Assembly (NCBI RefSeq): GCF_000010625.1
Contig: NC_010296.1
Coordinates: 240,001-272,000, forward strand
From: Microcystis aeruginosa NIES-843
GTDB lineage: Bacteria; Cyanobacteriota; Cyanobacteriia; Cyanobacteriales; Microcystaceae
Direction of reading: 5' to 3'
Length of the DNA: 32,000 nucleotides
The position numbers and the translations under genes are program-made. Under the pieces are notes generated by a model, which saw nothing but the letters and a program-made list of their open reading frames with translations, did not search any database and was not told the DNA's origin. Positions 4,000 to 31,727 of the stretch are shown one piece after another (the first letter of the stretch is position 1; each line of letters starts with the position of its first letter).

Positions 4000-5205
4000 A
4001 TGAAAATTCTGGTCTTAAATGCGGGATCGAGCAGTCAAAAAAGTTGTTTGTACGATTTAGAGTTTCTCCCTGGCCATCCTCCGCAACCAATTTGGCAAGC
4101 GGGGATCGATTGGACAGTTAACCCTGATTACGCGGTTTTAACGGTAAAAGCTCAGGGAATTAAACAGGAAATTAATCTTTCTAGTCAGGATCGTCCGGCA
4201 GGAATTGCTCGGATGTTAGATACCTTAGTCACTGGCGAAACTAAGGTAGTAGCCAACCTCGCCGACATTAGTATAGTCGGTCATCGAGTTGTCCATGGTG
4301 GCACGGAATATTCCCAGGCTACCATGATCACTCCCCAGGTCAAAGAAACGATTAAAAAGCTGATTCCCCTGGCTCCTAGCCATAATCCCGCTCATTTAGA
4401 AGGAATTGAAGCGATCGAGCAAGTTTTGGGCGATGTTCCTCAAGTAGCAGTGTTTGACACCGCTTTTCATCGTTCTATCCCTCCCGAATCTTCTCTTTAT
4501 CCCATTCCTTACCAATGGAGTGAACTGGGAATCCGTCGCTATGGTTTTCATGGCACCAGTCATCAGTACTGCTCCCAACGAGCCGCCGAATTGTTAGGAA
4601 AACCCCTGGAATCCTTGAAAATGGTGATCTGTCATCTGGGCAATGGTGCTTCCCTATCGGCAGTCAAGGGGGGTAAAAGTATCGATACTACTATGGGATT
4701 TACTCCCCTAGAGGGATTGATGATGGGAACCCGCAGCGGTTCGATCGATCCAGGGATTCTGATTTATCTAGAGCGAGAATATCAATATAATCCCGATAGT
4801 TTAAATAGTTTACTCAATAAAGAATCGGGTTTAAAGGGAATTTCTGGTATTTCTGGGGATATGCGGGCAATTACGACGGCGATGGCCGAAGGCAACGAGA
4901 GGGCAAAATTAGCATTTGAGATGTATATTCATCGTCTGAAAAGTTTAATCGGATCGATGATTGCTTCTCTGGAGGGGTTGGATGTGTTGGTATTTACGGC
5001 AGGAATCGGCGAAAATTCAGCTTTAGTACGGGAAAAAGCCAGTCAAGGCTGGTCTTTTTTCGGTTTAGAGTTAGATTTAGCTAAAAATGCCGCTCGTCCC
5101 CGGGATGAGGATATCGCCAGCGAGACATCTAAAGTACGCGTGATGGTAATTGCTACGGCGGAAGATTGGGCGATCGCACGAGAATGCTGGCATTTATCTC
5201 CATAG
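4000..5205 (+). CDS. ackA: acetate kinase
   Basis: MKILVLNAGSSSQK N-terminus, FHGTSH, HLGNGAS, MGFTPLEGLMMGTRSG. The ATG at 4000 is preferred over the TTG at 3988. Confidence 0.93.
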   Translation: MKILVLNAGSSSQKSCLYDLEFLPGHPPQPIWQAGIDWTVNPDYAVLTVKAQGIKQEINLSSQDRPAGIARMLDTLVTGETKVVANLADISIVGHRVVHGGTEYSQATMITPQVKETIKKLIPLAPSHNPAHLEGIEAIEQVLGDVPQVAVFDTAFHRSIPPESSLYPIPYQWSELGIRRYGFHGTSHQYCSQRAAELLGKPLESLKMVICHLGNGASLSAVKGGKSIDTTMGFTPLEGLMMGTRSGSIDPGILIYLEREYQYNPDSLNSLLNKESGLKGISGISGDMRAITTAMAEGNERAKLAFEMYIHRLKSLIGSMIASLEGLDVLVFTAGIGENSALVREKASQGWSFFGLELDLAKNAARPRDEDIASETSKVRVMVIATAEDWAIARECWHLSP

Positions 5206-5208
5206 ACC

Positions 5209-5760
5209 TTACCTTTGGCCATTCTCTTTTGGCTGTTCCGTTGCGGGAATCTCCATAATCGGATGGTTAAGAGCAATCATCAAATGGTCTCCCTCTTGGC
5301 TAATACTGCTCGGACTGCTCGCCATTTGGGAGAGGGGATCATTGCGTCCCGAGACGAAGTAGGAGCCAACAGCGATCGCCATAGCGGTGAAAATTGCGCC
5401 ACCATAAACATAATATTGCCGACGACGCTGACCATCGACTTTTCTGAACACCTGTTCTGCTAATCGGTCGCTGGCCATAGTAGCCGGTACGGGAATTTGC
5501 TTTAAATTAGTTTGTAATCCCAAGAGCTGCTGATAGAGTTTTTTAGCGGCAGCATCATGGTCTAACCAATGCTGAACTAGCTTCCGTTCCTCTACCGTTA
5601 CTTCGTTATCAATATAGGCGCTAATTAAATCGAAACGATGAGCTTCTTCGTTATCCTCATCTAAGAATAAAATATCCTCGGTTGCGGAGTTGGAATCGCT
5701 GTCATCGTGACGTAACAAAGACTTGATCCATTGAACGTCTTCGGGTTGATAATTATTCAT
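5209..5760 (-). CDS. putative membrane anti-sigma factor (partner of the upstream ECF sigma)
   Basis: Lies directly downstream of the ECF sigma gene. Has an N-terminal anti-sigma-like helix region (LISAYIDNEVTVEERKLVQHWL) and one predicted TM segment (YYVYGGAIFTAMAIAVGSYFV). The ATG at 5760 is preferred. Confidence 0.65.
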   Translation of the reverse strand: MNNYQPEDVQWIKSLLRHDDSDSNSATEDILFLDEDNEEAHRFDLISAYIDNEVTVEERKLVQHWLDHDAAAKKLYQQLLGLQTNLKQIPVPATMASDRLAEQVFRKVDGQRRRQYYVYGGAIFTAMAIAVGSYFVSGRNDPLSQMASSPSSISQEGDHLMIALNHPIMEIPATEQPKENGQR

Positions 5761-5873
5761 GGTTGACCTCGACCAGAAGCGATCGGTATACAATCACTTT
5801 TTACCAGCACGGAGCTAGTTAAATTTAACGACTCCTCATTTCGACCGTTAGTGCCGAATCACCACAATTTTAT

Positions 5874-6530
5874 TTAGCCTTCCGTAAAATAGGGCTGTAA
5901 AACAGATTGTAATTTAGCGCGAGCGCGAGCAATGCGGGATTTAACAGTTCCTAAAGAAACTCCCGTCATCTCGGCAATTTCTTCGTAGGCCATGCCTTCA
6001 ATTTCTCGCAGAATAATAGTTGTCCGAAAAGCTTCTGGTAAATCAGCGATCGCCGCCTGTAATTGATCGTAGAATTCGTGGGTGGTGAGATGTTCATCGG
6101 GACTGGGGTAATCGGACTCGATATCCCAATCGATTTCGCCATCTTCCACGCGCCGGGGAGCATCGAGGGAAATGGGGTGATTAACCCGCTTGCGTTTCCG
6201 CAATTCGTCGTAAAAAAGATTAGTGGCAATGCGACTTAACCAACCGCGGAACTTGAGGGGTTCATGGAGACGGTTAATATTGCGATAGACGCGAATCCAG
6301 ACCTCTTGAGCCAAATCAGCGCGATCTTGCCAATCGGGAGCCAAATGATAGAGTAATTTATCAATATGAGCTTGATAGCGCCGCAGCAGTTCCGCAAAAG
6401 CTGCTCGATCGGGCTGGCACCCTTCCTGACAGCGTGCAATTAGATCGTAGTTGGAGAGTTTGTCAGGGGACACGGGGTTTTGAGACTTTTTGGCCTCAAG
6501 TGACCAAGATGCTGGAATCGATTGACTCAT
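5874..6530 (-). CDS. ECF-type RNA polymerase sigma-70 family factor
   Basis: Region 2 (DLAQEVWIRVYRN, FRGWLSRIATN) and region 4 (LPEAFRTTIILREIEGMAYEEIAEMTGVSLGTVKSRIARAR). Confidence 0.9.
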   Translation of the reverse strand: MSQSIPASWSLEAKKSQNPVSPDKLSNYDLIARCQEGCQPDRAAFAELLRRYQAHIDKLLYHLAPDWQDRADLAQEVWIRVYRNINRLHEPLKFRGWLSRIATNLFYDELRKRKRVNHPISLDAPRRVEDGEIDWDIESDYPSPDEHLTTHEFYDQLQAAIADLPEAFRTTIILREIEGMAYEEIAEMTGVSLGTVKSRIARARAKLQSVLQPYFTEG

Positions 6531-6655
6531 GGGATTTCCTCTAGGGATATAAACTCCTCACTCAGAGCTTGAGGACGGGAGAATTCAGTAAAGGTTCCCG
6601 AAAATAAATAATTTTTTTCCCATATTTTGATTCTAACCGATCGGGGCATTCATCT

Positions 6656-6753
6656 GGGGGAGCAAGGGAGCAAGGGAGCAGCAAGTGGGGTAGTGGGGTA
6701 GTGGGGTAGTGGGGAGAATACATAAAAGCTGTCTCGGAGTCTCGGAGTCTCCT
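6656..6753. repeat. G-rich tandem repeats (GGGAGCAA)n and (GTGGGGTA)n followed by the module CTGTCTCGGAGTCTCGGAGTCTCCT
   Basis: Direct reading. The terminal 25-nt module recurs at 18415-18439. Confidence 0.8.
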
Positions 6754-6768
6754 GAATAGCTCTGTAAG

Positions 6769-7359
6769 TTAGGTTTTTTCCTTAGCGAGAATAAAGACGC
6801 TGCCCTCGCTGCCGCGGCCGATGCGGAGATCTTCATCGAGATAGGTGATATCGAGCCAACCTGTTTGTTGGCGATTATTGAAAGAAAAATCGAGGGGAGG
6901 AAATTTTTTGCCACTTTCGATCGCTTCGATAAATTCTTGGGGAGAATGATAATTGAGAAGACGTTGCAGACCGAGGATCGAGCGCTCAAATTTGACCATT
7001 ACCCGACGCTCGGATGTGGGTTCAAAGGTAGCGGAGACGATTACTGCCCCTTCTAGCCAAGGTACGCCGATAATTTCGGCGATATTGTAGAGTTTGGCCT
7101 TGTTCAGGTCGAGATATTGATAAATTTGCCCTAATTGCAAAAAAGGTAGGCGATCTATTCCCAGAATGTTGCGGCTGCTGGTGAATAGCAAACGCCAATT
7201 GCCCCCTAATAGTTGTTTAACTTCGAGGGGATGGGGATGGGGATTGTGATCCTCCAATTGTTCGATCGCCGCTAAAATCCGCACGCGGTCGCTTTCCGTG
7301 GCCAGGAGTCCACGATTTCTACCAGCGATCAATTCTAATAATTTCGCTTTGGCATCCAT
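6769..7359 (-). CDS. fibrillin / PAP (plastid-lipid-associated protein) family protein
   Basis: N-terminal KAKLLELIAGRNRGLLATESDRVRILAAIEQLE and GNWRLLFTSS motifs typical of PAP_fibrillin. Confidence 0.85.
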   Translation of the reverse strand: MDAKAKLLELIAGRNRGLLATESDRVRILAAIEQLEDHNPHPHPLEVKQLLGGNWRLLFTSSRNILGIDRLPFLQLGQIYQYLDLNKAKLYNIAEIIGVPWLEGAVIVSATFEPTSERRVMVKFERSILGLQRLLNYHSPQEFIEAIESGKKFPPLDFSFNNRQQTGWLDITYLDEDLRIGRGSEGSVFILAKEKT

Positions 7360-7538
7360 AGAATCTCCCTTATTTTATAAACTACCTCGACCCGCTTGGC
7401 GATCGCTCAAGGTTTTTGCTGGTTCCAAGAGGCTCACCCGCGCCGATGATTTCAGGGTTTCAACGGAGTTTTCACCCCAGTGAGCGGCATTTTCAACCGT
7501 TGGCCTTATTATTTTAACACAGATTAAATGCCGCAGTT

Positions 7539-8193
7539 TTAAAACTTTTTCATAACCGTAATTAAGTGATCAAAATAGGGAGTAATTGCGGTTTTTTCTG
7601 GGTCTCTAAAATACGCTAAACTGTATGCTTTTAAAGCTTCTAAACCCGAAATCATCGCCCCTAATGGTACTTGCAATTCTTGGTAAAGAAGACGCATATT
7701 TTCCAATCCCTCGGCACTGGTATAGGGAATCTGTTGTCCGACGACACCGTAGGTAATACAGCGTAAAAAGTTCCAGAAATCACGCCAACAAGCTTCGGCG
7801 CGGTGGGGTGGATAAAGATCGCCCCCGGGTTGAAGAATGGTAGGAAATTGGCTGAAGACAGTCTGACGGGCGTTATCGACGATAAAATTAGCATTACACC
7901 ATTTTTCTTTATTCGCGTCACAACGAACACCGGCTTGGCAAGCATTCGAGCGTGGATGTCTGTCATGGATTTAGAAATTTGGTATTATCCCGCAGTTTTC
8001 GAGCTTGTTGACTAGAAACAAGTAAATCAGGCTCTAAATTGACGATAGTATCTAAATCGCTATCGCTGAGATAGCGATTTTGCTCATCCGCTTGTTGCCA
8101 AATAGCGATCGCTGCTTGCTGATAGGGCCAATTAGCGAAACTAATGATTCTCGCTTTTGGGATTAATTGCTGGGCGCGCTCACTCAAAGGCAT
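7539..8193 (-). pseudogene. allophycocyanin-like (Apl-type) phycobiliprotein-family gene, reading frame broken
   Basis: N-terminal part is at 7963-8193 (..ADEQNRYLSDSDLDTI..ARKLRDN). The C-terminal part is in another frame at 7539-7970 (ANFIVDNARQTVFSQFPTILQPGGDLYPPHRAEACWRDFWNFLRCITYGVV...), has no start codon and was missed by the ORF track. The ACWRD...LRCITYG motif corresponds to the Cys-81/82 bilin site. Confidence 0.7.
7898..7983. mobile_element. 86-bp mini-MITE-like insertion inside the Apl-like gene
   Basis: Ends ACCATTTTTCTTTAT / ATTTAGAAATTTGGT are imperfect inverted repeats (about 13 of 17). Flanked by ATTAC / ATTAT. The 91 nt of extra sequence relative to the phycobiliprotein alignment accounts for the +1 frame change. 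Confidence 0.5.
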
Positions 8194-20627: not shown

Positions 20628-22052
20628 TTATTCCTCCGATTTCACTCGCATAACTACTAAAGTCATATCGTCACTACTGTCATTTCCTAAACCGGTAAAA
20701 GCGGCCACTTTTCCAAATAAATATTCTAGAATCTGTTCGGGATCGGTGTACTGTTGACAGGCTTCTTTAACTGCCGATAGCCAATTTTTCTGATCAAATC
20801 TTTCCCCTTTCGAGTTAACTGCATCGGTAAAGCCATCGGTATAATAAATCAGCGTATCTCCCGCTTCTAATTGCACTTGGGCATCGTCATAGATAGAATC
20901 GGCCTCTAAACCAACTAATGTCCCTTCCGTGTCGAGAGACTCTAACTCTCCCGTTTTGGCCCGCCACCAGAGGGTGGGATAATGGGCAGCATTACTGTAG
21001 CCAAGACGGCGCGTCAGGGGATCATACTCGGAATAAAATAATGTCACGAAACGATGAGAATTATCGAGATCGGCATACATAACCCGATTGAGATGACGCA
21101 AAATCTGGGCCGGGGAGTGACGATTTAACACTTCCGCTCGCAACATTCCCCGGGTCATGGTCATCAATAATCCTGCTGGGACACCTTTTCCCATGACATC
21201 ACCGATGACTATACTCCAAGGAGCGGCACTGGCTTCCCTTTCCGCCTCCGTTGCCGGTTTAAATTGATCGTAGTTGCAGGGGATAAAATCATAATAGTCG
21301 CCACCAACGCGATTAGCCGTTTGGCAGTGGGCTGCCAATTCTACCCCCTGAATTTTCGGACATTGCCGAGGTAAAAGACGATTTTGGATTTCGGCAGCGA
21401 TTTCTAACTCTCGATCCTGACGTTCCTTAGAACGTAATTCGATCGTTAATTCATTATTAGCTATAGCCACCGCCGTTTGATCGGCCACTAGCTGCAACAG
21501 TTTACGACGGGTGGGTGTCCAACCATAATCGGGATCGCGACTGAAAACGTATAAACGCCCCCGCTCACTATTTTTTACCAAAACAGGTGTACTATAAACC
21601 TGCGTACCCTGTCCGAGAGTTTGCCGGATTTTATGGTCGAGACTATCGAGAAGCGATCGATTATTTTTATTCTCAAGTGCCGGTTCTTGGTTTAATTGTC
21701 GGATAATTGCCTCTAATTGTCGGCGTAGTTCCCCATTAATTTGATTATCTTGGCAATGGAGTTGATCGAGCGCCACTTGACCGTTATTTTTGCTCAAAAT
21801 CAATGCCCCTCCCTCCGCGTCTGCCACTCGTGCGGCCATCAAGGGGGTAAGATCGAGGAATTGGTTTAAATTATTGAAACTCCGCAGGGCAAAACCGAGG
21901 GAACTTAAGAGATTTTGAACTTTGTTTTGTTCGCGATATAAACTAGCGACCAACTCTTTTAAGGCTAAAATTGGCTTGATATCGGTACTGTGATCGCCCA
22001 TATTGACGGTGGGAGTGGTGAGGGTGTCGCTCGGTTCCGGCTCAGAAAGCAT
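20628..22052 (-). CDS. GAF-domain PP2C-type (SpoIIE/RsbU-like) serine phosphatase
   Basis: N-terminal GAF-like region and C-terminal PP2C motifs (VGGDYYDF, IGDVMGKGVPAGLLM, YYTDGFTDA, DDMTLVVMRV). Confidence 0.85.
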   Translation of the reverse strand: MLSEPEPSDTLTTPTVNMGDHSTDIKPILALKELVASLYREQNKVQNLLSSLGFALRSFNNLNQFLDLTPLMAARVADAEGGALILSKNNGQVALDQLHCQDNQINGELRRQLEAIIRQLNQEPALENKNNRSLLDSLDHKIRQTLGQGTQVYSTPVLVKNSERGRLYVFSRDPDYGWTPTRRKLLQLVADQTAVAIANNELTIELRSKERQDRELEIAAEIQNRLLPRQCPKIQGVELAAHCQTANRVGGDYYDFIPCNYDQFKPATEAEREASAAPWSIVIGDVMGKGVPAGLLMTMTRGMLRAEVLNRHSPAQILRHLNRVMYADLDNSHRFVTLFYSEYDPLTRRLGYSNAAHYPTLWWRAKTGELESLDTEGTLVGLEADSIYDDAQVQLEAGDTLIYYTDGFTDAVNSKGERFDQKNWLSAVKEACQQYTDPEQILEYLFGKVAAFTGLGNDSSDDMTLVVMRVKSEE

Positions 22053-22199
22053 AAAATGATCTTTGTGGCGGTGACATGATTATAGCTAGATGGTCATTGG
22101 GTTATGACCTGTTTAAGTCTAACAGTATAGTTGATCTTTTTCTGACTGCCACAATTTAACCCTGATGTTTTACTATTTCCGTTTTTTGACGCTCCCCGT

Positions 22200-23619
22200 C
22201 TAAAGAGACGGGGATTCTTCGTTCATTGAGTCTCCGTTAGCAAGCAGGATTTCTCCAACCAACCAAGAGGGAATCTCTCCCGAAGCGTTTAAAGTTTGCG
22301 TGCGCCCCACGCTACTTAATCCCTTTTGCAAGATGTTTAAAGCGGCGTTTCTATCTCGACAATCTGTATATCCACAATGAGGACAAACATGGGTTCGAGT
22401 AGATAGCGACTTTTGGACTTTTTGTCCACAATTAGAACAATTTTGAGACGTATTATGAGGTGAGACAGCTATAGTTAACTTGCCGTATTTGTCCCCAAAA
22501 TACTCTAGCCATTGCCTAAAAACAGACCATCCTGCATCGGTTATCGACTTCGCTAAATGACGATTTTTGACCATGCCTTTGATATTCAAGTTTTCATAGA
22601 CGATTAAGTCGTTAGACTTAACTAAACGGAGTGCCACACTCTTGACAAACTCTTCTCGTTGCCTACTTACTCTTAAATGTTTCCGAGCATATCGCTTTCT
22701 AGCTTTGTGATAATTACGAGATTGTTTTTTACCCTTACGGTATTTCTTTGACTTTTTTTTATTTAATCGGTTTAGTTGTTTTGGTTCTTCGGTTTGTGTT
22801 ATGCAATGGACGGGAGTTATAAGGGGTGAAACCCTTATATAGAAAGACATTGCTTCGATTTTTGCCAATTGTTTTCAATCTAGAACGAGCTAATCAATTA
22901 AGTCTCTTGCCATATAAGGATTTAGTCGATTTATGCCCCCCTATCGAACCATAACAAGTAACGAAGAGCCGTTGTTTTTCAGCTTTTCGATAGTAGTTCG
23001 GACAATCAATTTGATGGCCTTCGCTATCTACTAAGAAAAACTTTAATCCCACATCAATCCCAGTGGCTTTCTGGGAAGGTGTTAAAGGCTTAACCCTGTC
23101 TCTGGGGTCTAATTTAAGGCAAAACTGCACATAATAACCATCGGCACGATTAAGGATTCTTACCCGTTTAATCTGGTCTGGTTGATAGTAATTAATATCT
23201 CTAGAACCAATCAGTTTAAGAGTACCAATACCTTTTTTGTCTGTAAAGGTAATATGACGTTTATTAGCTGATAGCTTCCATCCAGATACTTTATACTCAA
23301 CAGAACGGGAATGTTTTTTAAACTTAGGGTAGCCTTTCTTTCCTTTAACTTTATTTTGGCAATTATCGTAAAACCGAGTAATTGCCCGCAAGGTTCTTTC
23401 TACGGCAGTCTGGCAAGCATGGGAGTTTAAATCATCAACAAATTTAAACTCTTTCCTTAATGCTGTGTTGTATCGAAATAACTCTGTTTTGCCAACACCC
23501 CGATTATCCATCCAATAACGCAGAACTTTATTCCGAACAAATTGAGTTGTCCGTATTGCTTCGTTAATGGCTTCTATCTGATTAGGTTTTGGCTTAACCT
23601 TGTATTCTAGTACAAACAT
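22200..23619 (-). pseudogene. tnpB: TnpB (OrfB) RNA-guided endonuclease gene interrupted by a 188-bp MITE
   Basis: N-terminal 216 codons run to ..YYRKAEKQ (22972). The C-terminal 191 codons run from LNRLNKKKSKK.. (22775) through RuvC and zinc-finger motifs (CSNCG..CPHCG..DRNAALNI). The 196-bp insert changes the frame. Confidence 0.85.
22783..22970. mobile_element. MITE family B (188 bp) nested in tnpB
   Basis: Inverted ends GGTTCTTCGGTT / AACGAAGAGCC. Perfect 8-bp target duplication GTTGTTTT (22775-22782 and 22971-22978). Internal hairpin ATAAGGGG-TGAAA-CCCTTAT. Confidence 0.7.
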
Positions 23620-23813
23620 TTTGATACTGCTTGACTGAGTATCAATATCTTAACACAAAATTCTTTAAGTTGACAATACATATTTATTTAAAGCCGCCCG
23701 ACCCTGCGCGGGCATGGCGGGGCTTGTACCCAAATTTTCGGTCACACCGAAGTCTAGGGCTGATAACCTGACCTTATAATAATTAGAAGTATTTAACTTG
23801 ATCCACTGACTTT

Positions 23814-24464
23814 ATGACCTTGCCTCTCGATGTTCCCACGGCGATTAATCAACGTCGTTCTATTAAAAATTTTACTACCGCTCCGATCGCCCCAGAACTG
23901 CTGAAAACCCTGGTAGAATTAACCGTTGCCGCACCTAGTAGTTTCAACATCCAAGATTGGCGAATTATTTTAGTACAGGATGAGGCACAAAAGGCCGCTT
24001 TAGCCGAGGCCGCTTGGGGACAAAAGCAAATTATCCAAGCGCCGGTTACTTTTGTTTTCGCTGCCGATGCTGCCGCAGGAGGGGGAGAGCTAACTCCTAT
24101 CTATGAACAGGCTCTCAGTACGGGTGCCTGGAGCGAAGGCACGGTAAAATATTTTCAACAGGCAATCCCGGGATTTCAAAAGAATTTAGGCGAAAAAACC
24201 CGGGAATACGCGATTAAAGATGCCATGATCGCCGCTACTCATCTGGTTTTGGCTGCCGAAAGTCTCGGTTTATCTAGTTGTTTTCTCAACGGTTGGATTG
24301 AGGACAAGGTAAAAGCTGTCATTGGTGCTGCCGATCATCCCCATCTGGCGATCGCTGTTGTCGTTCCCATCGGTTACGCGGCGGAACCACGGCTTAATCC
24401 GGGGCGTTTACCCTTAGATTACAATGTTTTTGTGGATCGCTTGGGTAATCCCTATCAAATCTAA
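23814..24464 (+). CDS. nitroreductase family protein
   Basis: RRSIKNF N-terminal motif, PSSFNIQDWR, GWIEDKV. 216 aa. Confidence 0.85.
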   Translation: MTLPLDVPTAINQRRSIKNFTTAPIAPELLKTLVELTVAAPSSFNIQDWRIILVQDEAQKAALAEAAWGQKQIIQAPVTFVFAADAAAGGGELTPIYEQALSTGAWSEGTVKYFQQAIPGFQKNLGEKTREYAIKDAMIAATHLVLAAESLGLSSCFLNGWIEDKVKAVIGAADHPHLAIAVVVPIGYAAEPRLNPGRLPLDYNVFVDRLGNPYQI

Positions 24465-24473
24465 ACTTTAGCG

Positions 24474-24767
24474 ATGACTTTCTCTCCCTCAGCTTGGTTA
24501 ACGCCCTTTTTTAACACTCCCCTTTGGCGCGCTGGGGGAGTGTCGATCACTCTTGGTTGGACTATTGGTATTCTTGTACTGTTTATTCTTGTCACCTGTC
24601 TGACGATCGCTTTTAAAAGTTTACTAAAAAATCGTCTGCTGAAAAGTATCGGTTTTGGTAAGATATCCCTGTTGTTTTCAGGGATGAGAAGATGTGGACT
24701 TCCAAACCCCCTCATACTCCCAGTCAAACCAAAATTTAAGTTATACTTCATCTATTTTAGCTTTTAA
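24474..24767 (+). pseudogene. probable N-terminal fragment of an MscS-type mechanosensitive channel gene
   Basis: The first 60 or so codons (..TPLWRAGGVSITLGWTIGILVLFILVTCLTIAFKSLLKNRLLKSIG) resemble MscS-family N-termini. The resemblance ends near 24655 and the rest looks like random read-through. Confidence 0.4.
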
Positions 24768-24787
24768 GAGCAGGCTAGGGAAAAATC

Positions 24788-25570
24788 CTAAAATCCGAAA
24801 GAATAACCGATTTTTAGCTTTAATTGACTTTGATCATTGCCATTAGTGGCAATATCTCCCTCGATACCCCAATCGATCACACCTTGGCGATTAATTTGCT
24901 GACGAATTCCCATACCAGTGCGAATTAAAACGCCACCATTACTATTATCGCCGGTAATTACGCCCAATTCTGCTAAAAAAGTGCGATCAAAACGTTTCGG
25001 ATAACCAATCGGTCGCGAATAACCGAGAATTGCTGCCGGGGAAAAAGCTCGATCGCCGTTATCGGGGTCAGTGTTTATGTTTAAATCGAGATTAAGATGC
25101 ACGCGATCGAATTGACCAACAGTTTTACTAGCAATTCCCCGCAGACGAAAATCTAATCCCCTAGCATTATTTCCCGTCGGTAATCCTAAATCGGTACGAA
25201 TGGCAAAAGCGGGAACATTATCGTATTCTCGATTGAAATTATAGAAAAAACCTACAGATAAATTTCCCACATCAAAATCCGTATCATCACTATTAACTCG
25301 TCCTCCCACTTGCGGATCGATGCCGATAATAATGTGACCATTGCGAATAATACCGTTGAGGTATTCAATATCAAACTCACCCCCAAGATTACTATTTTCA
25401 GGAAAGACTAGACTTCCTCCAAATTCTATTGATTGTTCCCCAAAACCAATACTTTCAGCATCATCAAAAGAAAGGGGACGACCAGAATCCAGATTATTAT
25501 GATCGTTGGCAAAAACTGGATTAGTAAAACTAACGACTAAACTCACAGCAATTAATAAAAATCTTCTCAT
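24788..25570 (-). CDS. putative outer-membrane beta-barrel protein (resembles the 'MetA-pathway/transporter' barrel family)
   Basis: Signal peptide ending VFA-ND, alternating beta-strand pattern, Asp/Gly/Asn-rich loops, C-terminal ..KIGYSFGF ending in Phe (OMP beta-signal). Start overlaps the upstream stop (ATGA). Confidence 0.6.
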   Translation of the reverse strand: MRRFLLIAVSLVVSFTNPVFANDHNNLDSGRPLSFDDAESIGFGEQSIEFGGSLVFPENSNLGGEFDIEYLNGIIRNGHIIIGIDPQVGGRVNSDDTDFDVGNLSVGFFYNFNREYDNVPAFAIRTDLGLPTGNNARGLDFRLRGIASKTVGQFDRVHLNLDLNINTDPDNGDRAFSPAAILGYSRPIGYPKRFDRTFLAELGVITGDNSNGGVLIRTGMGIRQQINRQGVIDWGIEGDIATNGNDQSQLKLKIGYSFGF

Positions 25571-26787
25571 TTTTTGGGTTCCTCTTGATGATTGCTGTCG
25601 TCAGGTTTTTTCTCCGTATTAGGAGGGTTTTCCGGAGAGTGATTTTCGTGGTTATGGTGTTGGTGATCTCCTCCCTCATCTCCCTGAGAATTATCAGGTT
25701 TTTTCTCAGAATTATGAGGATTGTCGTGATTATGACCTTCGTGAGAAATATCTGCTGGCATTAATCCCATCCCCGGAATTCCTGACTGAAAACGATGATC
25801 GTGTAGTCCTTCACCACCATAATTTTTTCCTGCTGCCATTTCTTGATGATTAGCAGCCATTACTAACCAAATAGCGCGGGTGATTTGTTCGTCTTTTTGT
25901 TGGGGAGTTAGCCAATCTGATGCCAGAATATCATTAACCATATCGTGCAACATATGCAGGTTATCGAAGGTGTTAGATATCTGAGGAAAACGTCGGGCAA
26001 ACTTGGGACTAAGTTCGGCAAACATCGGCATAAAAGCTCGATCGGTGCGATACAATTCCTGACTATGGTATTGTTTTCCTACCTGTTTATAAGCTTGTTT
26101 TTGTTCTTCTAGCGTCTTCTCATAGAGCAAGTCATACATTGTTCCTTGTAACCAATGGTAGCCCCAAAATAAGCCATTAACTTTCGGATATTTCTGGCGA
26201 AAGGCTTTAGAATAAGGCTGGGAATCCAGATAACCCATATTCATGGGTAATCCCGTAATCGCATAGGGAACTTTTGTCAAGTAAAATTGATATAATTTCT
26301 CAATTTCCGCCTCTTTTTCCTTGTTGGTTAATTTGCTGCTGGCTAAAACATCAACGGTTTGAGCATGGAAAATATGCGCCCAATCGAAAACCTGTTCTAA
26401 AACACCGTATTTTCTGCCAAAAGTTGGGGAAATATTACCCTCGTCGGGCATAAATTTAGGCGGATTTTTTAAAACCCAATTAATTGTTTGGTATGTCTTA
26501 GTTTCTAAATCTTTCGCTTTTCCCGTTACGATATCTTCGTAAGCAAAGGCATGACCAACAGCGATCGCATTCAAGTCTAAAGCTAAATCTCTGACATTAT
26601 AAATTGCATTGTTATAAACCCCTCTTTGGGGATAAATATGATTACGTTGCTTGTTATACATCCAAGCTGGTATATTGTCAGGAATTGCTTGTAAAGTCTG
26701 AGTTTGAGGTGAATCAAGATGTAAATGTTGAGCAATTACAGGAGTAGAAATAAGTGCTACAGTTACCAATACAATCAACTTTTTCAT
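25567..26787 (-). CDS. secreted protein of unknown family with a His-rich C-terminal tail
   Basis: Signal peptide MKKLIVLVTVALISTPVIAQ. Helical-looking core with scattered His motifs (WAHIFHAQ, LHMLHDM, LHDHRF). Tail: HEGHNHDNPHNSEKKPDNSQGDEGGDHQHHNHENH. Confidence 0.7.
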   Translation of the reverse strand: MKKLIVLVTVALISTPVIAQHLHLDSPQTQTLQAIPDNIPAWMYNKQRNHIYPQRGVYNNAIYNVRDLALDLNAIAVGHAFAYEDIVTGKAKDLETKTYQTINWVLKNPPKFMPDEGNISPTFGRKYGVLEQVFDWAHIFHAQTVDVLASSKLTNKEKEAEIEKLYQFYLTKVPYAITGLPMNMGYLDSQPYSKAFRQKYPKVNGLFWGYHWLQGTMYDLLYEKTLEEQKQAYKQVGKQYHSQELYRTDRAFMPMFAELSPKFARRFPQISNTFDNLHMLHDMVNDILASDWLTPQQKDEQITRAIWLVMAANHQEMAAGKNYGGEGLHDHRFQSGIPGMGLMPADISHEGHNHDNPHNSEKKPDNSQGDEGGDHQHHNHENHSPENPPNTEKKPDDSNHQEEPKK

Positions 26788-26792
26788 GATAG

Positions 26793-27185
26793 TTAAACCT
26801 TGAGATTAGGGCAAATAAATTGATCGTCTTTTACAGGTGTATCCGTCCATTCTTGCAGGGTTTCGGTTAATTGTTGACGCAATAAAAGCAATTGTTCCAC
26901 TTGTTGATCGATCTCAGCAATATGTTTAATTAATTTTTCCTGAATATCTCCACAGGGTAACTCACCATGGTCATGAATTACTAAACATTCGCGGATCTCT
27001 TGCAGACTTAAACCCAAAGATTGCAATCTTTTGACAAACAGCAAGCGATGGACAGTATCGGGAGTAAATAGGCGAAATTGTCCCTCTGTCCTCTCAGGGG
27101 ACTGAATTAGTCCTAATTCCTCGTAATAACGAATCGTTTTAATTGAAACACCACTTTCTAGGGAAAGTTGACCGATTCTGAGCAT
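26793..27185 (-). CDS. MerR-family (metal-sensor-like) transcriptional regulator
   Basis: N-terminal HTH IGQLSLESGVSIKTIRYYEELGLI, coiled-coil dimerisation helix, candidate ligand residues HDHGELPC (Cys78) and C-terminal FICPN (Cys124). AAGGAG Shine-Dalgarno 8 nt upstream. Confidence 0.9.
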   Translation of the reverse strand: MLRIGQLSLESGVSIKTIRYYEELGLIQSPERTEGQFRLFTPDTVHRLLFVKRLQSLGLSLQEIRECLVIHDHGELPCGDIQEKLIKHIAEIDQQVEQLLLLRQQLTETLQEWTDTPVKDDQFICPNLKV

Positions 27186-27216
27186 TATTTTTGCTCCTTA
27201 ATCCTATCGTTACCCT

Positions 27217-27248
27217 ATTATAAAATCTCCCCCTGACTGGAGAATCAA
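27217..27248 (-). promoter_or_regulatory. MerR-type promoter: TTGATT -35, 20-bp spacer containing the dyad TCTCC-N8-GGAGA, TATAAT -10
   Basis: Minus strand reads cTTGATTctccagtcagggggagatttTATAATagg. -35 at 27243-27248, -10 at 27217-27222, dyad at 27226-27243. Lies about 30 nt upstream of the merR start. Confidence 0.55.
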
Positions 27249-27272
27249 GGGGGGGGGGAAAGAAATATTTTT

Positions 27273-27827
27273 TTAACTGACTTTACACTCAACTCCAAAA
27301 CCGACCAAGAGAACTTTTTCCAAGGGTTCCCCCTCCTTGGGACGTTGATAGTTAATAATTTTGCGAATTCGCAGGTCTGGATTGATTAAAGTAATTGAAT
27401 CCACGGAAACACTGCGAGTATAATTGGTGGTCATTAATAACTCTCTGGTAGTGGAATCAAAGCGAAAAGCAGAGATAATTGGTCTTGCTTCTTCGTAGGC
27501 GCGATCACGAAGATAATCCCCTTCTAAATAACCGTTATTTTCTGCTTTAACCACAAATAAAAGATTAAGATTTTGTCGCACTTCTTCCCCTTTTTCCGAG
27601 ATGGTATAGAAACCTAAATTAAACCCGGGGATACTTTCTAAATCCGCAATATCAGGATAGTTATTATCTGTCAGAACTTTCTGTTTAATCTCCCTAGTCA
27701 GGGGTTGAATGAGGAATTCAGTACGGGAACGTTCCACTTCTTGATCGGCTAGATAATGATAGGTTCTTTCCGTTTGCCAACTACCGACACAATAGACAAA
27801 AAATTGCTGAAAAACTTCGGTATTCAT
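27273..27827 (-). CDS. CpcS/CpeS-family phycobiliprotein lyase-like protein
   Basis: FFVYCVGSWQTERTYHYL N-terminal signature (compare F..S.G.W.S.R..HHL), YLRDRAYEE and NPDLRIR segments typical of the family. Confidence 0.8.
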   Translation of the reverse strand: MNTEVFQQFFVYCVGSWQTERTYHYLADQEVERSRTEFLIQPLTREIKQKVLTDNNYPDIADLESIPGFNLGFYTISEKGEEVRQNLNLLFVVKAENNGYLEGDYLRDRAYEEARPIISAFRFDSTTRELLMTTNYTRSVSVDSITLINPDLRIRKIINYQRPKEGEPLEKVLLVGFGVECKVS

Positions 27828-27854
27828 AGAGTTAATTCTCCTCTTGTCAGTATT

Positions 27855-28838
27855 TTAATTTTGAGTTATTTTATCAGTAACTTGTTCCCGATTTTCAAAA
27901 CCATAACAATCTCGAACAAGATAAAGTGGCCGTCCCTTTACTTCTTCATAAACCCTGCCAATATATTCGCCAATAATACCAAGAGTCAGTAATTGAATTC
28001 CTCCTAAAAATAAGATAGCAACCATCAGAGAAGCGTATCCAGGTACATCGATTCCTAAAATAATAGTCCTGAGCATTAAAAAACTAGCATAAACAAGACT
28101 AACAAGTGAAATGATAAATCCTACATAGGTCCAGACTTTTAGAGGTAAAAAACTAAAAGAGGTAATACCATCGATGGCAAAATTCCATAATTTCCAGTAA
28201 TTCCATTTAGTTTGTCCTTGATACCGTGGTTCTCGATCGAATAAAATTGATGTCTGTTTATATCCCACCCAAGCAAATATTCCTTTCATAAATCTTTGAC
28301 GTTCGGGCATCTTTTTAATTGATTCTACCACTCGGCGATCAATCAAGCGAAAATCTCCCGTATTAGGGGGAATAGGAACCCGACTTAATTTATTAATGAC
28401 TTGATAGAAACCTTCTGCTGTAAAACGTTTCAACCAACTTTCGCCAATTCTAACCCGACGGGACGCATAAACCACATCATAACCCTGCTGCCATTTTTCG
28501 ATCATTTCGGCAATTAATTCGGGGGGATCTTGTAAATCAGCATCAATAGGAATTACTGCCATCCCTTGACTGTAATCAATTCCTGCTGACATGGCAATAT
28601 CTTTACCAAAATTACGGGATAAATTAACCACTTTAATTTGTGGGTAACGTTGATGATATTCCACGAGATTTTTGAGAGTATTGTCACGACTACCATCATT
28701 GACGCAAACGACCTCATAACTGGTATTTATTGTCTCTAAAACCGCTAAAAGTCGCCCAAAGAGAGCATCGATATTTTCTTCTTCGTTATACAGAGGAACA
28801 ACAACAGATATTTTCACTGGTATTTGATTTGATAGCAT
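27855..28838 (-). CDS. GT2 polyprenyl-phosphate glycosyltransferase (ArnC/GtrB-like)
   Basis: VVVPLYNEEENI, VNDGSRDNT, DADLQDPPE and two C-terminal TM helices, as in the ArnC/GtrB/DPM1-like architecture. Confidence 0.9.
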   Translation of the reverse strand: MLSNQIPVKISVVVPLYNEEENIDALFGRLLAVLETINTSYEVVCVNDGSRDNTLKNLVEYHQRYPQIKVVNLSRNFGKDIAMSAGIDYSQGMAVIPIDADLQDPPELIAEMIEKWQQGYDVVYASRRVRIGESWLKRFTAEGFYQVINKLSRVPIPPNTGDFRLIDRRVVESIKKMPERQRFMKGIFAWVGYKQTSILFDREPRYQGQTKWNYWKLWNFAIDGITSFSFLPLKVWTYVGFIISLVSLVYASFLMLRTIILGIDVPGYASLMVAILFLGGIQLLTLGIIGEYIGRVYEEVKGRPLYLVRDCYGFENREQVTDKITQN

Positions 28839-28867
28839 ATTAATTTACAAAAAACTAGAGAAATTGT

Positions 28868-30085
28868 CTAACAAATATCAGCAGTCAAAACTTGTTCGTA
28901 CTTAGTGGCTGCTTGCTGCCAAGTATAATTATCTTCGATTAACTTGCGAGCATTTCTAGATAATTTTTCTCGTAACTCTGCCGATTCAAAAAGACTACTA
29001 ATCGCCGTACAATATTCCTCAATACTATTAGCCCTTAAGGCTGCTAAAGGAACATGATTTCCTTCCACTGTTAACCCTTCTAAACCTCGATCGCTGGCTA
29101 CCACCGGCACTCCCGCAGCCATCGATTCTAGGGTTTTATTTTTAATCCCAAAACCCGAACGCATTGCCACAACACAAATAGTAGCATGATGAAGATACTC
29201 GGCCATAGATGGAACTCGACCTGTGACAGTGATTTTAGAATTTTTTGTTAATTCTATGACCGATGGAGCAGGATTGGAACCAACAAGTATCAGAGTAACC
29301 TCAGGATATTTTTGTTGTAAAATAGGGAAAACTTCTAAACTGAAAAAGCGTACTGCATCTATATTAGAACTGTAATCTAGGCCTGCCGTCATAATAATTT
29401 GATAACCACTGGGATCGGTTTCTCGATAGGGGAATAGTTCCAAGTCAACGCCGTTGGGAATTACAATAACAGGGCGATTAATGTTCAACTCTTTCATCTG
29501 CTCCTTGTCTTCTGAAGTAGTGACAACTATAGGGTTAAATTTCTGACAAAATCTCCGTTCATAGCGTTCGAGAAGTGGCAAATACAATGTATCTCGAATA
29601 GGATTAGGGCTGACTCCTATCTCTAATTGATTTTTGCAGGTTTTATAGGCTAAACTATGTATATTTATTATAGTTTTAAGCTTTTTTTGCCAATGGGGGC
29701 GGACAAAGATCTCATTGACGCTATGCTCACAAGTAATAACATCAAATTTTTGACTATCAATGGCACGATCAAGCCACAATTGAATATCAGCACTATATAC
29801 TTGTCGAACGTTGGGAGGAGTACCTTGCATTATAAAATCATAAAAACGATTTATTTTGCCTAAAATACTAGGGTTGGCAGAATTAGAATAGGGAAATATC
29901 TTTACCTCCTTAACCAATCTTTCCAAGGCTTCAATATCAGTCCTACTAACATCCGAATTTGGTCGAGTCATGATCGTGATTTCATGATTCTTACTCAGGT
30001 GTTTTAAAAGATTGAAGGTTCTAACTTGAGTTCCCCCTCTGGTTGGGGGATAGGGAAAAGTAGAGGATAGAATTAAAATTTTCAT
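28868..30085 (-). CDS. GT4 (group 1) glycosyltransferase
   Basis: MKILILSSTFPYPPTRGG N-terminus. C-terminal E-x7-E region (GFGIKNKTLESMAAGVPVVAS). Confidence 0.9.
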   Translation of the reverse strand: MKILILSSTFPYPPTRGGTQVRTFNLLKHLSKNHEITIMTRPNSDVSRTDIEALERLVKEVKIFPYSNSANPSILGKINRFYDFIMQGTPPNVRQVYSADIQLWLDRAIDSQKFDVITCEHSVNEIFVRPHWQKKLKTIINIHSLAYKTCKNQLEIGVSPNPIRDTLYLPLLERYERRFCQKFNPIVVTTSEDKEQMKELNINRPVIVIPNGVDLELFPYRETDPSGYQIIMTAGLDYSSNIDAVRFFSLEVFPILQQKYPEVTLILVGSNPAPSVIELTKNSKITVTGRVPSMAEYLHHATICVVAMRSGFGIKNKTLESMAAGVPVVASDRGLEGLTVEGNHVPLAALRANSIEEYCTAISSLFESAELREKLSRNARKLIEDNYTWQQAATKYEQVLTADIC

Positions 30086-30098
30086 GGCTTGAGCAAAG

Positions 30099-31727
30099 TT
30101 AGCGTTTGATGACTTTCCATGCGTTGGGTTTACTAGGATAGTTTTCTTGGGATTTAAAAAGTGGTTCTAAGACAAAATTTTCTGTTGATTGTAACTTTTC
30201 CACAAGAGTTGATGATGGACGAAAAATGATAATATCAGTATATCCTCGGTAAATATCATTAGGTTGATTGGGATTAGTTTCGAGATGAAATTCTGCTCTT
30301 TTAGTCAGATGAGAATAGACATTATGGTTAACTAAATAACTCATGGTTAAGGCATCAGCAAAATCATCATATAGAACTACAGGTTTCTCTAATTTGTTCA
30401 ATTTTTGAGCTATTGCTGGGTAATCAGGTGCTCCAAATGCCCACCAAGAAGGAGAACTAGCTATGATCCAAGATGATAGCAATCCCAATAGTAAAAGGCT
30501 AGAAATGATGATTTTACTCAGTTGTCTTTGCCAGCTTAAACGAGAATAAAAAAGATAAGCTATCAAAGCAGTTGCTGCTAATTGCCAACCGATAGCGTAG
30601 GGCAACATATAACGTAATCGAACAGAAAACCCTGTTCCCGAGATAGCGTCTTTTATCATCAAAATCCCTCCCCCACCAATTAGCAAAGCGAGAATCATCC
30701 AGTTTTTATTTTTGCCAGCATTAAAAATTAAAAATACTACAGATGTCAAAAGAAAAACTAGAAGAAAAATCCAAGAAGTTCTTTGTAATAAGAGAAAAGA
30801 GTCAGTATCCTTAATCCAGCCATCATTTAGATCGATAAAAATACGAAGCACCCCTCTCATCCAATCTTTAATTAACCCAGTGATTGGGATATTTTGTTCA
30901 GCCGGTTGTTCCACAGAATATCCGAATAACCCTGGCTTGGTTAGAAACAGATAGAACCAGGGCATAAAAAGTGAAATTCCTAACAGCGATGATAGAATAT
31001 AGTTCTTAACATTCTTAGTAATTCTGCCTCTGGAATCAATAATTATATAAAGAGCATGACTAATTATTACAAAAGCGAAAAGAATATTAGAATATAACCC
31101 GAAAGCAACGGTAAATGTATAGAGCAACCAATTAATTTTTTTGGGAACTCGTAAGCTGTGAAGTAAAGTTGCACTAGATAATAGAGTAAAGGCTGTAATT
31201 AGACTATAAGTTCTGACGATCTGGGAATATTGGAGTTGTAATGGAGAAATTGCGAAAATTGCCGTCCCTAACCAAGCGATAGATGCTGATTGAAATAATT
31301 CCCAACATAGCCAATACATAAAAGGGAGAGAAAACAAACTAATAAAAGCTGAACAACTTCGAGTGATTATCGCAGGCTCGGTAAGGAATAAGCTCCAGAA
31401 TCTTGACCAAATTTGCACCATGAAAGCATATAAAGGCGGAAAGACGTAAGGTCGCTCAAGCAGGCGCTTAAAACTATCGAAAATACCTTCATCTGTGTTA
31501 TATCTTTGATAGTTTTGTAATTCCGAGGCAGAGACAATTTTAACATCGATAATGTTCGCTATATTTTGCCCGTAGATATAGGTTGTACTAAAAGCTTCAT
31601 CATTAGAATATAATTTGCCATCTAAATTATAAAATCTCAGGAAAATCCCCAAAATTAAACTGATTAATACTAAAGCTTTTAACCAATTGGGAATTTTCAA
31701 GAATCCAGCTTTAAGTTCCATTAACAT
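30099..31727 (-). CDS. GT39/ArnT-PMT-like polytopic membrane glycosyltransferase
   Basis: About 12 TM segments. First-loop acidic motif YSNDEAF after TM1 (LRFYNL). Soluble C-terminal domain. Confidence 0.8.
   Translation of the reverse strand: MLMELKAGFLKIPNWLKALVLISLILGIFLRFYNLDGKLYSNDEAFSTTYIYGQNIANIIDVKIVSASELQNYQRYNTDEGIFDSFKRLLERPYVFPPLYAFMVQIWSRFWSLFLTEPAIITRSCSAFISLFSLPFMYWLCWELFQSASIAWLGTAIFAISPLQLQYSQIVRTYSLITAFTLLSSATLLHSLRVPKKINWLLYTFTVAFGLYSNILFAFVIISHALYIIIDSRGRITKNVKNYILSSLLGISLFMPWFYLFLTKPGLFGYSVEQPAEQNIPITGLIKDWMRGVLRIFIDLNDGWIKDTDSFLLLQRTSWIFLLVFLLTSVVFLIFNAGKNKNWMILALLIGGGGILMIKDAISGTGFSVRLRYMLPYAIGWQLAATALIAYLFYSRLSWQRQLSKIIISSLLLLGLLSSWIIASSPSWWAFGAPDYPAIAQKLNKLEKPVVLYDDFADALTMSYLVNHNVYSHLTKRAEFHLETNPNQPNDIYRGYTDIIIFRPSSTLVEKLQSTENFVLEPLFKSQENYPSKPNAWKVIKR

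Follow-up and report, generated by a model that had tools for sequence, protein, structure and literature searches.

A MerR-led operon of Microcystis aeruginosa encoding a His-rich helical protein and an outer-membrane barrel: a candidate copper-defence system of the cell envelope

Overview

A 32,000-nucleotide stretch of the Microcystis aeruginosa NIES-843 genome (NC_010296.1, positions 240,001 to 272,000; hereafter 'the window', whose own numbering is used throughout) carries a compact minus-strand operon that encodes a MerR-family regulator, a secreted protein of 406 residues, here called MID, and an outer-membrane (OM) β-barrel of 260 residues. We best explain the trio as an operon for copper defence in the cell envelope, activated by MerR, in which MID would bind copper where the channel opens to the periplasm; both metal and mechanism are proposals, and we hold this reading at about even confidence. 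It draws on the gene structure, the family assignments, a conserved operator and regulon, the obligate pairing or fusion of MID with the barrel, an internal duplication of MID and a conserved set of His residues. MID is a protein family without prior description, and together with its barrel it probably belongs to the copper defence of bacteria as a component that has escaped study. An initial annotation of the window had proposed an autoregulated MerR-led operon and an uncharacterised metal-handling system; at the level of sequence, this proposal gains support from the lack of any family or fold match, the co-occurrence of the genes across cyanobacteria and the conserved operator.

Operon layout

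The operon consists of three open reading frames (ORFs) behind a MerR-type promoter, as follows.

27217-27248, minus strand: MerR-type promoter/operator (sequence inspection and orthologous merR promoters)
26793-27185, minus strand: merR, a 130-residue metal-type MerR-family regulator, two-Cys variant (Pfam, NCBIfam, PDB alignment, Cys conservation)
25567-26787, minus strand: MID, a 406-residue secreted protein (conservation, hhalign and structure model; no family or fold match)
24788-25570, minus strand: COG4313/PF13557-type 12-strand OM barrel of 260 residues (Pfam, structure model, Foldseek, invariant columns)

The merR stop and the MID start are five nucleotides apart (TAA-ctatc-ATG), and the MID stop and the barrel start share an ATGA overlap; strand, coordinates, gap and overlap are all as first annotated. 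At E <= 1e-3, MID has 531 homologs and the barrel 285, with 50-99% identity, so both ORFs are real genes and not chance reading frames. The top matches, at 95-99% identity, are from Microcystis, and the operon is present in all nine Microcystis species representatives sampled (loci L005-L013).

MID is a duplicated helical protein

MID has a Sec-type leader, judged by eye (MKKLIVLVTVALISTPVIA, followed by QH; signal peptide 1-20). No qualifying match was found in Pfam, NCBIfam or the PDB sequences, using either the single sequence or a 36-sequence profile, and the sole Pfam signal was one sub-threshold match of 17.9 bits against a cut-off of 29.3. The AlphaFold2 (AF2) model displays an all-helical core, residues 55-320, with a predicted local distance difference test score (pLDDT) of about 80 and disordered ends. 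HxxH motifs are found at residues 138-141 and 278-281, an HxH motif (HDH) at 329-331 and the sequence GMGLM at 339-343. A Foldseek search of this model against the PDB yielded nothing at E < 0.001. The signal peptide, the helical-looking core with H-x2/3-H motifs and the lack of an assignable family had all been recognized in the initial annotation, and the profile and fold searches likewise matched MID to no non-metal family.

An exhaustive HMMER search collected 356 cluster representatives of MID, and conservation was measured over 58 full-length members. Conserved at 81-100% are H79, H138, H141, H211, H278, H281, E84, D146, D275, D282 and D286, and the conserved feature of the protein is a six-His set on four helices, presumably buried. 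Profile-profile comparison of residues 58-152 with 190-292 by hhalign gave a probability of 99.2% (E 2e-19), with H79 aligned to H211, H138 to H278, H141 to H281 and D146 to D286. This half-versus-half match reveals MID as a tandem duplication of a helical repeat, in which H + HxxH + D occurs twice within a core of about residues 58-292. The duplicated arrangement would fit a binuclear site, or two 3-His metal sites, in a helical bundle. The core is 65-80% identical among cyanobacterial orders and 50-70% identical to its counterparts in Armatimonadota, Abditibacteria, Elusimicrobiota, Zixibacteria and Acidobacteria.

The regions outside the core are of a different nature. The tail, residues 345-406, has 10 His in 62 residues, and His, Asp and Glu make up 40% of it versus 15% of the core. 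The His/Asp/Glu-rich tail highlighted in the initial annotation is therefore present, but it is the least conserved part of the protein, and conservation lies instead in the six-His set. In orthologs, the N- and C-terminal tails are variable and always His-rich, with Met, Asn, Asp or Glu, and Met-rich motifs occur. An N-terminal segment, about residues 30-58, is conserved within the clade and absent from the fused forms described below, whose MID match begins at profile position 89; we speculate that this segment may be a docking element of unfused MID.

Two variations of MID were observed. Between three and five of the 58 representatives carry Arg in place of several of the conserved His (positions 79, 138, 141 and 211), which suggests a branch without the metal site. 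Non-cyanobacterial MIDs (L040-L083; e.g., L042 7977-9545 and L056 7962-9611) possess an extra C-terminal domain of about 150-200 residues that follows Met-rich linkers (GMPGMGxM...MGWMSM) and shows the conserved pattern CxHC...RCxLCA...HxxC. Directly upstream lies a gene for a stand-alone, secreted paralog of this domain, without a match in Pfam (e.g., L042 7471-7974).

Several possible relatives of MID were rejected. Ribonucleotide reductase R2 and aldehyde-deformylating oxygenase surfaced as fold relatives in Foldseek with E > 1 and a template-modelling (TM) score of about 0.15, and were not relied on. Homology to DUF305/CopM was dismissed at an hhalign probability of 0.1-0.2% for either half or the whole core. 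A multicopper oxidase identity (PcoA/CueO) was discarded given no Pfam match, an all-helical model and no Foldseek match. The UniRef label 'DUF3160' is attached to one ortholog cluster only, and PF11369 is absent from the window protein at E <= 1. The cyanobacterial zinc exoprotein ZepA (PMC10957091) is unrelated, being a 27-kDa, PEP-CTERM, Zur-regulated protein with another His motif.

The OM barrel and its obligate pairing with MID

The 260-residue protein begins with a signal peptide (residues 1-21), ends in ...GYSFGF and carries, before strand 1, an invariant plug-like motif, DHNNxDxxRPLSFDDAES (residues 23-40). Its β-barrel nature had been predicted in the initial annotation, and the AF2 model revealed 12 strands with a pLDDT of 80. 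The best Foldseek match is the COG4313 channel Pput2725 (4RL8; TM 0.66-0.68, probability 1.00), in which an N-terminal segment blocks the lumen; FapF and then other 12-strand barrels (autotransporter, intimin) rank below it. The protein scores 21.1 bits with Pfam PF13557, whose cut-off is 22, and many orthologs (50-57% identity) have a precomputed PF13557 match. A barrel profile had no match among the PDB sequences. The PcoB/CopB family (PF05275) was rejected, as no match was found at E <= 1 and the PcoB structure 7PGE is a generic barrel match that ranks 31st, with a TM score of 0.43. Barrels of a distant branch (L087 6172-7017, L088 6178-6993, L090 6184-7014) end in short His-rich tails (...GGDHDHDH, ...GGSDAHRH), in contrast to the aromatic ...GYSFGF terminus of the cyanobacterial barrels.

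A MID-based scan of species-representative genomes gave 80 loci, to which four were added by exact look-up; 82 have a complete MID ORF. In all 82, the barrel gene is the next gene on the same strand after MID, often with the ATGA overlap kept, and the pair spans at least seven phyla. A MerR homolog close to the pair is confined to cyanobacteria. The trio does co-occur across cyanobacteria, as the initial annotation had asked, but what is widely conserved is the pair of MID and barrel.

In a distant branch, the gene order is flipped to barrel then MID, and in Gemmatimonadota hundreds of proteins of about 570-600 residues, on contigs of up to 2.6 Mb, are barrel-then-MID fusions that retain the signal peptide and the plug motif and have His-rich tails at the end. 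The fusions cannot be read-through artefacts because their order reverses that of the cyanobacterial genes; they also form more than 100 distinct sequence clusters on long contigs. Since the plug motif is kept and MID follows the last strand, MID most likely resides at the periplasmic mouth of the barrel. Separately, four loci (L037, L054-L056) are labelled as Chloroflexaceae and Actinomycetota/Actinomycetes metagenome-assembled genomes, where an OM barrel is unexpected because these are monoderms; the L037 MID is 72% identical to a cyanobacterial protein, and these contigs are probably mis-binned.

A two-Cys MerR regulator

The regulator scores 65.8, 64.2 and 53.4 bits with the Pfam models MerR_1, MerR-DNA-bind and MerR (gathering cut-offs 21.6, 25.4 and 28.2; E-values 4e-18 to 2e-14), which places it in the MerR family, with a winged helix-turn-helix and a dimerisation helix. 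The NCBIfam models for individual metal sensors, with cut-offs of 143-168 bits, gave lower values: 99.5 for MerR, 97.4 for CadR-PbrR, 91.3 for CueR and 71-76 for ZntR. The nearest solved structure is the Hg-responsive MerR of Bacillus megaterium (4UA1, E 2e-23), followed by PbrR and CadR, and then CueR. In the alignment with 4UA1, C78 falls on the Cys that opens the dimerisation helix, C125-P126 falls on the last Hg ligand, and Thr116 takes the place of the middle ligand.

Across 24 cyanobacterial orthologs, the only invariant Cys residues are C78 (GxLPC) and C125 (I/V-C-P). Among the metal ligands put forward in the initial annotation, C78 and the C-terminal Cys thus held up and H71 is mostly kept, whereas H73 and C67 are not conserved. 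Because only C78 and C125 are invariant, the regulator represents a two-Cys variant whose site would span the dimer interface. A CueR identity (TIGR02044) was rejected on the score (cut-off 147.4 bits), the Cys at position 78 and the single loop Cys in the clade. The MerR (Hg), CadR/PbrR and ZntR equivalogs, which are defined by at least three thiolate ligands, two of them in the C-terminal loop, were set aside on scores below cut-off, on Thr116 at the position of MerR C114 and on the conservation of C78 and C125 only.

A conserved operator defines a regulon

The merR promoter is built of a -35 element, TTGATT (27248-27243), a 20-nt spacer and a -10 element, TATAAT (27222-27217), and the spacer holds an imperfect dyad, ATTCTCC-N8-GGAGATT. 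A generic sigma-70 promoter scan overlooks it because the spacer exceeds 18 nt. Orthologous cyanobacterial merR promoters read TTGACT-CTCCAG-N4-CTGGAG-AGTC-TAAAAT, with equal position and 20-nt spacing (full operator consensus, TTGACTCTCCAGTTAACTGGAGAGTCTAAAAT), and near-perfect dyads occur in at least 12 of them. As the orthologs keep this dyad at the same position and spacing, the Microcystis operator is a degenerate copy. The candidate operator of the initial annotation, 27217-27248, is therefore real, and the promoter has the 19-20-nt spacer and dyad that characterize the metal-sensing MerR subgroup.

The operator was searched for in 2.03 Mb of fetched loci; as the site is palindromic, each match was counted on both strands. 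Of 90 matches, 86 lie in cyanobacterial loci, versus ~8 expected by chance. The operator was found upstream of merR in ~14 loci, upstream of the HMA/CopA operon, where an HMA chaperone gene leads an HMA-ATPase-cupredoxin series, in ~16 loci, upstream of the ATPase gene in some loci, and upstream of MID, or of a small HMA/His-rich gene followed by MID, in 11 loci. HMA CxxC, CPC and MxxSS motifs, which we take to be the signatures of Cu+/Ag+ P1B-1 pumps, are present in 25 of the 31 ATPases under the operator. The remark in the initial annotation that the operon includes no inner-membrane transporter holds for this window; most other cyanobacteria, however, have an adjacent HMA-chaperone/Cu+-type P1B-ATPase/cupredoxin operon under the same operator.

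Two further observations concern the operator region. In Stanieria PCC 7437 (L001, position 4199), a second operator copy precedes the gene for a 263-residue membrane protein with glutaredoxin and MauE domains, which is transcribed divergently from the gene of an amino-acid permease; the MerR regulon may therefore include a thiol-redox component. On the minus strand of the window at 27229-27258, a run of ~12 C directly upstream of the -35 element can pair with GGGGG in the right half of the operator to form a 10-bp hairpin with a T-rich stretch behind it (CCCCTTGATTCTCCAGTCAGGGGG AGATTTTATA). This element, which overlaps the merR promoter, resembles a terminator of the cpeS-like gene upstream, and the length of the C-run is not the same in Microcystis sp. 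T1-4 (L005).

Genes around the MID-barrel pair point to copper

Neighbouring ORFs were clustered in 70 non-redundant loci, and the cluster representatives were named by Pfam. Cupredoxin or YHS-cupredoxin proteins are encoded in 44 loci, HMA-P1B ATPases in 32, MerR in 21, HMA chaperones in 10, resistance-nodulation-division (RND) pumps in nine, DUF305 in eight, CsoR-type repressors and DUF2231 in six each, and DUF326 Cys-rich proteins in five. Taking CopA, HMA, cupredoxin/YHS, DUF305, CsoR or DUF326 within about 7-8 kb as copper markers, 21 of 29 cyanobacterial-type loci and 32 of 41 loci from other phyla have at least one (53/70 overall). The typical cyanobacterial order is HMA-CopA-cupredoxin-MerR-(HMA/small His-rich)-MID-barrel; elsewhere it is (CxxC protein)-MID-barrel-YHS/cupredoxin, plus DUF2231, CsoR, CopA or DUF305. 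Where distant relatives are unfused, the pair is flanked by genes for CsoR, HMBD-ATPase, PCYCGC, YHS and DUF305 and by CusCBA-like genes. Judged from sequence context, copper is most likely the metal handled by the MerR-MID-barrel system.

A few cyanobacterial loci (L017, L018, L020) have a CoaT-like SPC pump beside MID, accompanied by a CoaR-like regulator. In L018 (about 4700-7860) and L020 (about 4700-7830; Aphanothece hegewaldii), a divergent MerR-like protein of 370-385 residues, a CoaR-like length, and an SPC/HEGxT P1B-ATPase of CoaT-like type are encoded between the copper merR and MID, and these regions are therefore composite metal islands.

Flanks of the operon in the window

Around the trio are genes for a CpeS-like protein, a nitroreductase, glycosyltransferases and a SpoIIE-type phosphatase, together with a split TnpB gene; none of these products is connected with metals. 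No Rfam family was found in 22000-29000. The TnpB/IS605 OrfB gene (Cas12f-like TNB domain; 22200-23619, minus strand) is broken into ORFs of 241 and 222 residues and probably represents a copy that has been disrupted. In Microcystis sp. T1-4 (L005), an additional 667-residue ORF lies between the barrel and nitroreductase genes, so the barrel-side flank differs among strains. For a 542-residue ORF (30099-31727, minus strand) beside two genes for glycosyltransferases, Pfam gave nothing at E <= 1e-5.

A working model and its rivals

In the model that we favour, the regulator would occupy the dyad within the over-long 20-nt spacer of its own promoter, and metal bound through C78' and C125 at the dimer interface would switch on merR, MID and the barrel gene. 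Copper would be both the inducer and the ligand. In other cyanobacteria, the same operator would also turn on an HMA chaperone, a Cu+-exporting P1B-1 ATPase and a cupredoxin. MID, once exported to the periplasm, would dock on the 12-strand COG4313-type barrel from the periplasmic side, where its flexible His tails (with Met, too, in orthologs) would gather copper and the duplicated 3-His + 3-His four-helix core site would hold it. The pair would then dispose of periplasmic copper, most likely out through the OM channel, although both the direction and the nature of this transport are conjectural. Such export would complement the Cu+ ATPase, which otherwise just loads the periplasm.

Several observations weigh against this model. 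A Cys at regulator position 78 is reportedly the mark of divalent-metal MerR sensors, as Changela et al. are said to have described in 2003, and CueR, in contrast to this regulator, has Ser at that position plus two loop Cys. The spacer length and half-site presumably resemble those of ZntR, CadR and PbrR sites, and the Microcystis operator agrees with the consensus at 14 of 18 dyad positions. The Microcystis MID tail lacks Met, no copper genes were found in the window beyond the trio, and none were seen around three fused Gemmatimonadota loci. The characterised COG4313 members TcpY and SphA take up hydrophobic molecules, and a passive 12-strand channel alone cannot power export. Finally, nothing was found in the published literature on the MID-barrel pair, MID or a cyanobacterial MerR-type copper sensor, and literature on COG4313 and copper, Microcystis MerR, cyanobacterial CueR and DUF2231 held nothing on the MerR-MID-barrel system.

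The main rival, which we regard as unlikely, makes MID a periplasmic redox metalloenzyme whose 3-His + 3-His binuclear centre (di-copper or di-iron) exchanges electrons with cupredoxins or cytochromes, for example oxidizing Cu(I) to Cu(II) like the multicopper oxidases CueO and PcoA, with the barrel in the role of PcoB. Relatives of MID are fused to cytochrome c (P0301) or DUF2231 (P0304), and, besides the cupredoxin/YHS-cupredoxin neighbours in 44 loci, a cytochrome b is encoded in L087 and DUF2231 in L090 as well as in six loci. Carboxylates beside the His residues and the strong identity of MID across phyla (50-70%) suit an active site better than a metal sponge, and the H + HxxH + D repeat presumably recalls type-3 copper and hemerythrin-like four-helix centres. 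Against this, MID is without structural or sequence similarity to any oxidase (the two candidate folds above fall at E > 1), the neighbouring cupredoxin could equally be a CopI-like copper-binding protein, and cyanobacterial MID orthologs are without redox-domain fusions. Somewhat less probable again is a Microcystis system for a divalent metal (Zn, Cd, Co, Ni or Pb) instead of copper. This would agree with Cys78, with HMM scores for MerR (Hg) and CadR/PbrR above that for CueR, with a 20-nt spacer and what we take to be a ZntR/CadR-like half-site, with a Met-free tail rich in His, Asp and Glu, with a window that has no Cu+-ATPase, and with the SPC-type (CoaT-like) ATPase that directly adjoins MID in L017, L018 and L020. 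However, the pumps under the operator are of the Cu+ type, going by their signatures, whereas the SPC pumps bring their own CoaR-like regulator; the two-Cys site has no third thiolate of the sort that binds Hg, Pb and Cd, and the CsoR, cupredoxin, YHS, DUF305 and PCYCGC neighbours in other phyla indicate copper.

Two other explanations concern the barrel. It could be a dedicated translocator by which MID, or its tails, would reach the cell surface, in the manner of FapF or an inverse autotransporter, so that MID traps metal outside the cell. The Foldseek ranking, in which Pput2725 is followed by FapF, a polypeptide transporter, and by autotransporter and intimin barrels of 12 strands, is in line with this, and so is the fusion order, in which the barrel is N-terminal and MID C-terminal as in inverse autotransporters. 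We nevertheless consider it improbable: the plug motif, lumen-filling in the COG4313 structure, is kept in the fused proteins; MID is a compact helical domain of roughly 270 residues, unlike typical passengers; and unfused MID has its own Sec signal, with no threading linker or helix evident. The least credible alternative, to which we assign only a very slight chance, is a non-metal system in which the COG4313 channel imports a hydrophobic compound, MID binds or processes it, and MerR senses the compound or oxidative stress. The hydrophobic-molecule uptake served by TcpY and SphA, the many MerR regulators that are not metal sensors and the missing metal genes at the three fused loci speak for it, but two invariant Cys lie at canonical metal-site positions, the operator is common to Cu+-ATPase and chaperone operons, copper genes are in strong excess around the pair in many phyla, and the MID tails are rich in His and Met.

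Returning to the copper-defence model, we put forward a bolder extension only tentatively, with clearly less confidence than the model itself. MID would found a new class of periplasmic metalloproteins, defined by a duplicated four-helix, 3-His + 3-His binuclear centre coupled to a COG4313 channel; the pair would form an ancient copper redox/OM route extending from cyanobacteria to Gemmatimonadota and Armatimonadota, brought in cyanobacteria under the control of a new inter-subunit two-Cys MerR copper sensor.

Significance

Beyond Cus and Pco, the exit of periplasmic copper across the OM is poorly understood. Microcystis blooms are widely treated with copper salts as algicides and the operon recurs in every Microcystis representative sampled, which gives a copper-defence operon practical relevance. 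MID, an unannotated family of thousands whose candidate metal site is clear and whose channel partner is obligate, offers a testable entry point, as does the MerR clade, with its unusual two-Cys site and well-defined operator and regulon. A third is this COG4313 subfamily, whose substrate would be a metal or a metal-protein complex instead of a hydrophobic molecule. For the passage of metals across the OM, a 2014 review of metal homeostasis in cyanobacteria names only porins and TonB-dependent receptors, and the sole MerR-type metal regulator that it lists is CoaR (PMC4284471). If the bolder extension is correct, the two-Cys MerR would give cyanobacteria a type of cytosolic copper sensor not previously known from them.

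Comparison with known systems

The system would resemble PcoA/PcoB and CueR-CopA-CueO/CopI in its working but belongs to none of them. As with PcoA/PcoB (CopA/CopB), the gene for a secreted protein, here a probable copper-handling one, sits beside that of an OM β-barrel in what would be a metal-induced resistance cluster, flexible regions are rich in His and Met, and a Cu+-exporting P1B ATPase accompanies the pair. Unlike PcoA, MID is all-helical, without cupredoxin domains or multicopper oxidase motifs; the barrel is of COG4313/PF13557 type and not of the PcoB/CopB family, and regulation is by MerR or CsoR instead of the PcoRS two-component system.

In the CueR-CopA-CueO and Rubrivivax CopR-CopA-CopI systems, a Cu+ ATPase and a periplasmic copper defence that includes a cupredoxin are under a MerR-type activator whose dyad lies in an over-long promoter spacer. 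Activator, dyad, ATPase and periplasmic proteins have their counterparts here, but position 78 is Cys and not Ser, a single loop Cys (C125) replaces the C112-x7-C120 of CueR, the spacer is 20 nt long, and merR is co-directional and first in its operon. Hg-responsive MerR of B. megaterium and Tn501, together with PbrR/CadR, are the closest solved relatives of the regulator (E 2e-23 to 2e-18) and have in common with it the helix-start Cys and a Cys-Pro that corresponds to MerR C123-P. MerR C114, however, is Thr116 here, this Cys is absent across the clade, and no mer genes are nearby.

The COG4313 channels Pput2725, TcpY and SphA match the barrel in having 12 strands, about 260-270 residues and a conserved N-terminal segment before strand 1. 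The known members are linked to hydrophobic substrates and are without an obligate periplasmic partner, whereas the subfamily described here is always paired or fused with MID, in copper clusters. The periplasmic copper-binding proteins CopM/DUF305 of cyanobacteria are, like MID, secreted and helical with His and Met, and come from a copper-induced cluster, as MID probably does; DUF305 itself occurs in eight of the MID loci; yet no homology is detectable, and MID is three times larger, with another set of motifs.

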